A stretch of DNA of 64,000 nt from Octopus vulgaris (Eukaryota): the NCBI GenBank assembly GCA_951406725.2, contig OX597834.1:13454001-13518000 (forward strand). Reading direction: 5' to 3'. The notes beneath the pieces were generated by a model, which did no database searches, was not told the DNA's origin, and was given only the letters and a program-made list of their open reading frames with translations. The number at the start of each line of letters is the position of its first letter. Positions within the stretch are counted from its first letter, which is position 1. This document shows, piece after piece, positions 2,866-59,535 of the stretch. The translations under genes and the position numbers were made by a program.

Positions 2866-3545
2866 CATATGTGTGAGTGTGTATGTATATAAATATTTTT
2901 ATGCGTGTGTGTATGTTTTTCTCAATATGTCTACCGCAGCGCACGATTCAAAGTAGAGAATGATTGCGATTTGTTGAGAAGTAATAGGATCTGATTGGAA
3001 ATAAAGTAAAATAAGGAGAAACTAAAATCGATCAGACTTAAATTAAAATAATTTTCTGTTTTCTTTTTATTTAAGTGGTTTTCAAAACTCTTCAAAGGAA
3101 GTTTGTGTCATTTTATTCTTTACATAATTATTTCAGTTACTTAATTTTATGGAGTAGACAAATGTTCATGCAGAATTTAAGAAATAATTGCAGTCGCGAT
3201 AAAAGATTTCAAGAGCAATTCCTATAACTTGATGATATGCCTGTACATACGAGTTTGAAAGATATAATTTTCTTAAGTAGTTTCTGGTTTTTGGGTGTAT
3301 TTTTTATCGCATTTTATTAAAACTCCGAAAATGTATTGAAAATGGCGTCAAATTATACTGCAGATACCATAAATTCTGTCACTTTCCGGAAAGATTTATT
3401 TCATTATATTTATTCTTGTTTTTATTTCTCCGGTTTGAGCGAGTGCAGTATTTGATTCACATTCACGCAAAAGCATTGATTTGAAATTTTGACATAATGC
3501 TAGCAAATACGGTCTAGGGGAAAGTCGATCGTATCGAACCCAGTA

Positions 3546-3946
3546 CTTGTGGAGACATTCACCCTGGGCGGGTTGAGTCGGCTTCTTCTACCACCCTCGA
3601 GGCATTCGCCACAGAGAATTCATGGAAGAAGTTTCGTGGGAATATGTGGATTTCACAAGCGGTTCCCAACAATCCCGCATGTAGAGACATCCAGTTTGCC
3701 GCAGATTGTCCGCAGACGCAGAGAAAGAACGACCGAGGAGCCGCCGGTTGCCGAAACAGACACTCCGAGGATTTTCACCAGAGCCCCGTCTGCCGGGTTG
3801 TGGCCCTAATACCACTTGGTGTCAGACCAATCCACCTTGGGTGGCCCTACCAGGAACCGAAGTTCCCGACGGCATAGCTCTGACACTACCCGTTGCCAGC
3901 GTCCCCACCACGATGAGGAAGGGATGGACTTTGGGGACGCAAAGTA
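3546..3946 (-). mobile_element. Non-autonomous bipartite RTE-derived retroelement (RTE 5'UTR plus RTE-type 3' end), 401 bp
   Basis: GC-rich island in AT-rich DNA; 6-bp TSD ccagta at 3540-3545 and 3947-3952. Minus strand has catcgtggtgggg...agagctatgccgtcggg...cctggtagggccacccaagg, typical of RTE-clade (Rex3/BovB-like) 5'UTRs, and ends in ...tctccacaagta (CAAGTA-type RTE tail). No RT ORF. Confidence 0.75.
3784..3940 (-). ncRNA. Candidate HDV-like self-cleaving ribozyme at the 5' end of the RTE-derived element
   Basis: Minus strand: P1 GCGUCCCC/GGGGACGC (8 bp); L3 UCAUCGU; P3 UCC/GGU (one mismatch); P1.1 CA/UG; P4 helices CGGGU/ACCCG and GUGUCAGA/UCUGACAC; J4/2 GCAGAC; short P2 CCCU/GGGG. Manual fold only. 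Confidence 0.5.
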
Positions 3947-4149
3947 CCAGTATGCAACTGGTACCTATTGTATCGAGTCTGAATGAACGAAAATCAATAG
4001 CGACTTCAGCAACCGGTGAACTCAAAATGTAAATTTTGTTAGCTCGCTGCCTTATATTCAAGGAAATATATTGTTCCATCAAAACACTGCGTAGAACGTT
4101 TTAAATTCAGTTAATGAATGAAAATATAGTATATAGAACACCGGTGACT

Positions 4150-58924: not shown

Positions 58925-58928
<4 letters not shown>

Positions 58929-59535
58929 TTGGTTGGCATCCTTTTTGTCATGGAGACAATGGAGTTGCACATAAAATAGTCTAGTCCGGCTTTTACATTT
59001 CATATCCTGATACATTTCCTGCTGTGGCTGTGTAGTCCTATCCTGGACAAACACTCCCTCTGGCAGGTGCCGCAAATGTAGCGAAGACTGTTCCTGTCTG
59101 GTTGTAATGTCATAGTTTCTTGTTGACGTATTTTCTTGTCTTTCCGTTTCTCCCCTCTCTCTCTGTCACTCCTTTGTTTTCCCTCTTTTACGTTACGTCG
59201 CCAACCTCCACGGTTGCTGGCTATTGTTTCCCAACTGCTAATATTGATGTTGCAGGCCTTCATGTCCCTTTTGCAAACATCCTTGTAACGTAAGAACGGT
59301 CTACCCACAGACCTAGTACCCCTAGCAAGCTCTCCGTAGAGTATGTCCTTGGGGATTCTGCCATCTTTCATACGGCTAACATGCCCAAGCCATCTCATAT
59401 GTCTTTGTGTTAGGAGTGCAAACATGCTTGGTATTCCTGCTTGCTTGAGGACATCTTTGTTTGGGATATGATTCTGACATTTGATGCAGAGGATTTTCCG
59501 GAGGCAGCGCAGGTGAAAGAAGTTTAGGCGACGCT
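58925..59535 (-). mobile_element. 5'-truncated RTE-clade LINE (ORF C-terminus and 3' tail)
   Basis: RLNFFHLRCLRKIL..., MRWLGHVSRMKDGRIPKDILYGEL..GTRSVGRPFLRYKDVCKRDMK, C2H2-like CGTCQRECLSRIGLHSH; tail ggatgccaaccaaccaa. Confidence 0.92.

Follow-up and report, generated by a model that had tools for sequence, protein, structure and literature searches.

What kind of element is a 401-bp insertion that encodes no protein, and how would it come to be copied around a genome? The question is raised by positions 3546-3946 of the window, the 64,000-nucleotide stretch of Octopus vulgaris DNA analyzed here. The original prediction read this segment as a member of a non-autonomous family that is cut out of host read-through transcripts by a self-cleaving ribozyme and then copied by an RTE enzyme. 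The genome searched comprised 2.8 Gb in 227 contigs.

Results

Boundaries of the insertion

The hexamer CCAGTA brackets 401 bases with a GC content of 56%, compared to 35% for the whole window (Table 1), so the GC-rich insert and exact 6-bp target site duplication (TSD) described earlier were confirmed. As had also been claimed, no reverse transcriptase (RT) is encoded; the three element-strand frames hold short stretches only, the last of which ends in the final codons of the partner LINE described below. When the flanks were rejoined in silico, with the insert and one TSD removed, an abundant older repeat (which we take to be a SINE) spanned the junction in 31 of 35 matches (27 loci), in keeping with the proposal that the insert splits an older repeat. 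Two details of the original description needed revision. The 401-bp extent of the insert stands, but the element proper starts at 3940 and not at 3946. The CAAGTA end is present, but its last TA also belongs to the TSD; family copies have a longer tail, (TACAAG)(TAAG)n. The 5' junction is bridged by contigs of three sequencing runs carrying three organism labels, and the insertion is therefore common to those three. Depth ratios over the element were in the thousands in three runs; these ratios are contig-based and do not represent copy number.

Table 1. Window coordinates of the insertion, its parts and its predicted RNA features
Feature	Position	Strand	Description
TSD, left copy (CCAGTA)	3540..3545		Last two bases (minus strand) also continue the element tail
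TSD, right copy	3947..3952		Extends to 7 bp in three other runs, which have C at 3946
Bipartite non-autonomous RTE derivative	3546..3940	-	395 nt, tail shortened
Older high-copy repeat	3522..4032 (3522-3545 + 3947-4032)	+	Interrupted by the insertion
Inverted copy of element nt 9-13	3941..3945	-	Between TSD and G1; likely snap-back extension of cDNA end
5' part of element	3604..3940	-	Partner LINE nt 1-328, 92% identical; whole 5'UTR and a few bases beyond the first ATG
3' part of element	3543..3605	-	Partner LINE nt 3324-3386, 94% identical; last ORF codons, short 3'UTR, start of tail
Predicted HDV-like ribozyme fold	3784..3940	-	G1 at 3940; 157 bases
Predicted P1	3933-3940 with 3899-3906	-	8 bp, opened by G1-C pair
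Predicted L3	3910-3916	-	UCACCGU
Predicted P1.1 partner	3897-3898	-	Predicted C-G and A-U
Putative catalytic C	3792	-	J4/2 G-CAGA-C; CAGA at nt 148-152 with preceding G
Predicted P2	3920-3923 with 3784-3787	-	4 bp; one unpaired C before P2
5' arm of predicted end-joining helix	3625..3631	-	CUUCUUC, just before first ATG (3621-3623)
3' arm of predicted end-joining helix	3582..3588	-	GAAGAAG, within last ORF codons

The insert belongs to a multicopy family

A genome search with the insert gave 1596 candidates, 40 of which were scored; all 40 were near full length, at 91-100% identity. In 30 retrieved loci, similarity begins at GCGTCCCC (window 3940), the flanks are unrelated, and the 3' end reads ACAAG(TACAAG)(TAAG)n. 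The first 20 bases of the element occur exactly 199 times in the genome, and a reversed control does not occur at all. Loci with an exact 5' end were examined in 83 cases, comprising 23 of the first 30 (7 overlapping tandem matches were dropped) and 60 more. Seventy-three were bipartite miniatures, with a 3' end within 560 bases, 1 was a full LINE and the remaining 9 showed no 3' end within that distance. In 37 of the 73 miniatures, base 1 (G1) directly adjoins an exact TSD of 6-19 bp.

Many copies of about 400 bp, with differing TSDs and common junctions (at least 51 copies in the junction class of the window and at least 127 in the commonest), thus constitute a family; neither a single copy nor random LINE fragments were found. 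Among hundreds of copies of this non-autonomous element, the insert is a worn one. A tRNA search of the element found no tRNA-like head, and the best matches to Pol III boxes within it (6/9 for the A box and 7/10 for the B box) are wrongly positioned. The element has no run of four T. A protein-free, tRNA-less, non-autonomous family had been predicted, and the family is indeed multicopy and bipartite, with a partner that carries both ends. At one locus (L110; G000:C2:189320193-189320487), the first 25 bases of the element form about ten head-to-tail repeats before one copy, and shorter 5' duplications are seen at L005, L008, L030 and L243.

Both ends derive from an RTE-type LINE

Partner copies were found by walking upstream from the 3' end of the element in the genome. 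Both ends of the insert match a single autonomous-type LINE (Table 1), with the stop codon of the 3' part at 3559-3561 (minus strand). In two long copies, L091 and L092, element nt 6-343 and 342-401 lie at opposite ends, 3.4 and 3.05 kb apart, respectively, and an RVT_1 domain lies between these element-like ends; L272 is a third long copy. The genomic copies contain an endonuclease and RT frame that is broken. Because this applies to every long partner copy translated, the family has probably lost its mobility. Among intact proteins the closest is P0001, a 1035-aa endonuclease-RT that is 79% identical to that of the partner. P0001 is located on a 3.3-kb contig, and its next relatives are only 55-63% identical; its likeness to the partner could be due to horizontal transfer, or the contig may come from a species close to the host. 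The best-scoring animal-named matches to the partner protein are from flatworms, and a search of viral contigs found neither the 5'UTR pattern nor a partner relative.

The partner fits RTE in having a single APE and RT ORF, no RNase H, a length of ~3-3.5 kb and a microsatellite tail, with the Pfam domains taken from the 79% identical relative P0001. In the supplement of Kojima 2018, RTE-14_Lch, RTE-4_PM, RTE-60_LMi, AviRTE and BovB have one string of 5'UTR motifs (PMC5786205). By eye, the partner 5'UTR shows the motif order of RTE-14_Lch, AviRTE and BovB in that supplement, and the earlier claim of an RTE-type 5'UTR holds to this extent. The enzyme of the partner LINE likely copied the miniature.

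An RTE fragment elsewhere in the window (58925-59535) was rejected as the partner, as it has no DNA match to it. Its protein is 32% identical to the closest intact relative of the partner and 80-85% identical to L265-L268. The fragment therefore belongs to another RTE family. It is a 5'-truncated copy whose relatives L265-L268, elsewhere in the genome, have long open frames of 863-1095 aa. A near full-length copy of the partner LINE, L093 (G000:C4:96495000-96500500), has its 5' 1.5 kb inverted, resembling the products of L1 twin priming.

Deletion junctions lie at a predicted helix

The miniatures arose by many independent deletions of one LINE. Ten junction classes have at least two copies, some of them differing by a few bases. 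In all 73 miniatures the retained 5' part runs from nt 1 to 315-337, thereby taking in the entire 5'UTR, and the sequence resumes at LINE nt 3233-3343. The junctions lie at a predicted 7-bp helix that would pair the start-codon region with the end of the ORF (Table 1). At least five of its seven pairs are retained in 56 of 62 parsed miniatures, and the shortest miniatures consist of the helix stem and a loop of 4-8 bases.

Sister families were compared for the same pairing. In family D, whose arms were read by eye in 15 loci including 12 two-ended copies, the helix is CUCCUAU/AUAGGAG, with three double changes, and the codons have changed as well; it is found in 9 of the 12 two-ended copies, and the other 3 are without one arm. 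The family B helix, at 8 bp, is longer than in 300 of 300 control windows, none of which reaches it. The L091 helix is matched by 5% of control windows in length and by 22% in energy, and one arm is damaged in L272. We take the predicted helix to be real in this lineage, though it may not be general: by energy it stands out in only 3 of 11 other RTEs. A short helix pairing the two halves likely sets where the miniatures are cut down. Literature covered by title and opening of the abstract, with few subscription papers, contained no description of an end-joining helix.

The 5' end has a predicted HDV-like fold

The first 157 bases of the element can be folded as an HDV-like ribozyme (Table 1). 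The G1-C pair that opens the predicted P1 is present in 45 of 48 copies; at 8 bp, P1 is longer than the 6-7 bp typical of R2 ribozymes (PMC3774820). L3 has U, C and G at the conserved positions of the HDV-like L3/P1.1 pattern (PMC6326823), and of the P1.1 pairs, C-G is found in 47 of 49 copies and A-U in 46 of 48. The predicted J4/2 fits the C-R-R-A/C-N-R-A pattern that follows P4, where CAGA is permitted (PMC6326823). Between the core parts lie G-CAAC and then a structured P4 insertion of ~100 bases.

A structure descriptor was composed post hoc, after the sequence was seen. It gave one match each in the family majority sequence, the window copy and L092, all with G1 at base 1; 3000 shuffles gave one match anywhere and none at the start, and replacement of the putative catalytic C by A, G or U gave no match. 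Applied to seven other RTE 5' ends, it matched L207 and L125 and missed five (L128, L213, L206 and the family C and D copies tried). An initial, loose descriptor gave hundreds of chance matches and was dropped. Rfam matched the L092 5' region only to an HDV-like family, with the match beginning at G1; its score of 14.2 bits (E 4.8) lies far below the threshold of 44, and by our reading it covers P1, P3 and L3 only. No ribozyme was matched by the window copy at E up to 5, and 18 loci gave only simple-repeat matches among the 150 of 223 listed. A twister or hammerhead assignment was rejected, as no Rfam match to either was obtained with the window copy, with L092 or among those 150. Also rejected was a conserved GCUAU (nt 62-66), which the L092 Rfam alignment would place at J4/2; it lies inside a closed stem without an adjacent P2.

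Across four sister families, J4/2 reads CAGA, CCAA, CUAA and CUAA, all within C-N-R-A. The same P4 domain is seen, by eye, in L128, L213 and L182 from metagenome or genome contigs (J4/2 CGAA, CAAA and CUAA), and P1.1 covaries by eye as A-U, G.U and A-U in the insert family, L128 and L213. A covariation test used a 21-row alignment that is out of register for families C and D. In it, 89.7% of cells were paired, compared to 42-52% when slid, and doubly changed cells numbered 37, compared to 16.6 in shuffles. Covarying pairs numbered 7 (6.9 in shuffles), mainly in P1 and the P4 hairpins, with almost none in P2 and P3. Near-canonical HDV-like 5' folds were seen in RTEs on prokaryote-labelled metagenome or MAG contigs (the L125:113-172 region, L206 and L207), which are probably host DNA.

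The predicted fold is worn

P3 falls short of a full 3 bp: besides its two C-G pairs it has a U.U mismatch, seen in 48 of 48 copies. Family D has a full P3 (ACC/GGU), and activity despite a P3 mismatch is reported for one R2 ribozyme (PMC3774820). P2 has only 4 bp, below the expected minimum of 5, and 77% of its cells are paired. In transcripts of at least 170 nt, a downstream hairpin is predicted to capture J4/2, leaving it an unpaired probability of mostly 0.1-0.2 in a model without pseudoknots. Every core pair and base is intact in only 11 of 49 copies. The conserved C of L3 is missing from 7 of 7 family B copies, and families C and D begin with C or A instead of G, yet all three families spread. 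A deletion hot spot at nt 145-165 (window 3776-3796) affects up to 12 of the 73 miniatures, whose deletions fall at nt 151-160 in the P2 3' strand; several long LINE copies are also hit at the hot spot, and the deletion ends differ each time.

A subgroup of family C (L240, L305, L306 and L307; e.g., G000:C2:64653528-64653700) has lost the first ~24 bases, comprising the P1 and P2 5' strands, and bears a foreign head of 60-230 bases that is common to several contigs. In the family C search, 13 of 40 matches begin at the same point. The arrangement resembles 5' switching accompanied by ribozyme loss.

An HDV-like ribozyme at the element's 5' end is structurally plausible but worn. Descent of the 5' fold from such a ribozyme is very probable, and the odds appear about level that the ribozyme was active in the insert family while the family was spreading.

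Bases at the 5' junction

Of 113 distinct starts, 67 have T at -1 and 14 have G (12%, below the 18% G of the flank), and among these starts there is no excess of cap-derived G of the kind found in about 33% of SVA insertions (PMC3287187). The motif ACTTT, an inverted copy of nt 9-13, precedes G1 at 7 of the 113 starts, including that of the window and spanning several junction classes, where 0.16 would be expected; the inverted copy of the window is 7 bases long in three other runs. These starts fit a cDNA that ended at G1 and was extended by snap-back, which is among the junction types named for R2 (PMC11331408). The G-poor -1 position and the snap-back both fit cleavage, but also permit a precise promoter start.

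Discussion

Our preferred reading, to which we give an even chance, is that the insert is a worn copy of an element in which the entire 5'UTR of one LINE is joined to its final 60 bases; this LINE is a 3.4-kb RTE-type element resident in this genome, and its enzyme likely made the copy. On this view, the first 157 bases of the insert would form an HDV-like ribozyme, by which the RNA would be freed from a longer host transcript exactly at base 1. The miniatures take both their ends from the LINE and have multiplied, and each insertion has its own TSD. In LINE RNA, a helix of 7-9 bp formed by sequence ahead of the start codon and the final ORF codons would loop out the ORF. Deletions would then fall inside the loop, either by RT skipping across it or through copying of only those derivatives that keep the helix. 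Self-cleavage would free copies lying within introns or other host transcripts, and G1 would become an uncapped end. In stringent non-LTR elements, the LINE protein binds the 3' end and then carries out target-primed reverse transcription; here it would bind the 3' end common to LINE and miniature and insert the copy in this way.

The same bipartite element could instead carry the HDV-like fold as a relic, with the 5'UTR retained for a Pol II promoter inside it, from which RNA synthesis would begin at G1, or for a protein-binding site. We regard this as a realistic possibility that falls short of an even chance. It would accommodate the P2 and P3 defects, the competing downstream hairpin, and the spread of both family B without the L3 C and the family C subgroup with a foreign head. 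Every miniature keeps about 315 nt, twice the length of the ribozyme; Kojima 2018 expects Pol II transcription of bipartite LINEs (PMC5786205); and the 77-nt head of trypanosome elements is both promoter and ribozyme (PMC3383444), with cleavage lost in some (PMC4035085). Weighing against a relic are the lack of excess G at -1 (14 of 113), the coincidence of the 5' boundary with G1 of P1, and the confinement of between-family J4/2 changes to C-N-R-A. The two functions could also coexist, with an internal promoter making most of the RNA and a slow ribozyme trimming read-through only, or the fold could serve mainly in translation or 5' end protection. This combination is improbable in our estimate, although Pr77 of L1Tc/NARTc (PMC3383444) and IRES-like roles (PMC6765202) offer precedents. 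J4/2 is predicted to be free at 160 nt and paired once the RNA is longer, so a short co-transcriptional window would be possible. Finally, the SINE-like size and the lack of a run of four T could suggest a Pol III SINE with an unrecognized head, or the copies might be random pieces of a longer LINE. Both are scarcely credible: the 5' part is the 5' end of the LINE from base 1, no tRNA was found and the best A and B boxes are poor and misplaced, and junctions common to 51 and 127 copies already refute random fragments.

Kojima 2018 does not settle why RTE, Ingi, Vingi and R2 alone give rise to bipartite non-autonomous LINEs (PMC5786205). A broader proposal, which we advance tentatively and consider unlikely to hold in full, is that RTE RNA of this lineage loops through the start-codon/last-codon helix, which would be kept by compensatory change even where amino acids changed and would fix where ORF-less miniatures arise. 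Together with a self-cleaving 5' end that would free the miniatures from any promoter, this might explain why RTEs spawn two-part parasites almost alone among LINEs; the widespread 5'UTR domain of the BovB/AviRTE type would correspond to an enlarged P4 within an HDV-like ribozyme. The value of the system is as a test set, with one LINE and many independent deletions, all at one predicted helix, in one genome. Its four sister 5' ends grade from a near-canonical HDV-like fold (family D) to a visibly damaged one (family B), and bear on whether parasites need self-cleavage to spread or are losing it.

The element itself is ordinary, as bipartite RTE derivatives and ribozyme-headed miniatures are already known. 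The novelty implied by the original prediction is not supported, because Kojima 2018 (PMC5786205) and Eickbush 2012 (PMC3414825) describe elements of this kind. The insert family may already carry a name; in the main text of an octopus repeat annotation (PMC13282606), the words ribozyme and non-autonomous are absent. Ruminski et al. 2011 is the RTE ribozyme paper, according to its citations in PMC5786205, PMC6765202 and PMC3774820, and the read-through model for RTEs is stated in PMC6765202. Kojima 2018 lists RTE-N2_Lch, RTESINE1/2, WALLSI3 and Bov-A as bipartite, ORF-less, non-autonomous RTE LINEs; RTE-N2_Lch consists of 214 and 70 bp of RTE-4_Lch, retention of the 5' end is noted for such elements, and the paper connects them with 5' ribozymes, which are predicted in several RTEs (PMC5786205). 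The insert family likewise joins the 5' and 3' ends of an RTE partner, without an RNA-derived head. It differs in being a new family in a new host, in its many independent junction classes and in a predicted fold worked out in detail, with a large P4 insertion, and the available text of Kojima 2018 (PMC5786205) contains no counterpart of the end-joining helix.

Further parallels lie outside these bipartite RTEs. Perere-3 of Schistosoma mansoni resembles the present system in its one APE and RT ORF, GTAA-type tail, ribozyme adjoining the TSD and use of host promoters (PMC8501958). Its ribozyme is a twister, whereas the insert family has no twister match in Rfam, and no twister is reported upstream of 301 SR2B copies (PMC8501958). 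The R2 SIDEs of Drosophila (PMC3414825) combine a 5' HDV-like ribozyme with a 3' end, copying by the enzyme of a partner and dependence on co-transcription, features that the present reading also gives to the insert family. Those elements are rare and site-specific in rDNA, and their cleavage was assayed; the insert family, in contrast, is dispersed and abundant, with a fold that is predicted only. NARTc/L1Tc, RIME/ingi and the SIDERs (PMC4035085, PMC3383444) are similarly dispersed derivatives with an HDV-like head, some of which have lost activity. Together with the R2 SIDEs, these elements are the experimentally tested precedents for miniatures headed by a ribozyme. These trypanosome elements belong to the Ingi clade and have a 77-nt head that is also a promoter, whereas the insert family is of RTE type with a predicted fold of 157 nt.
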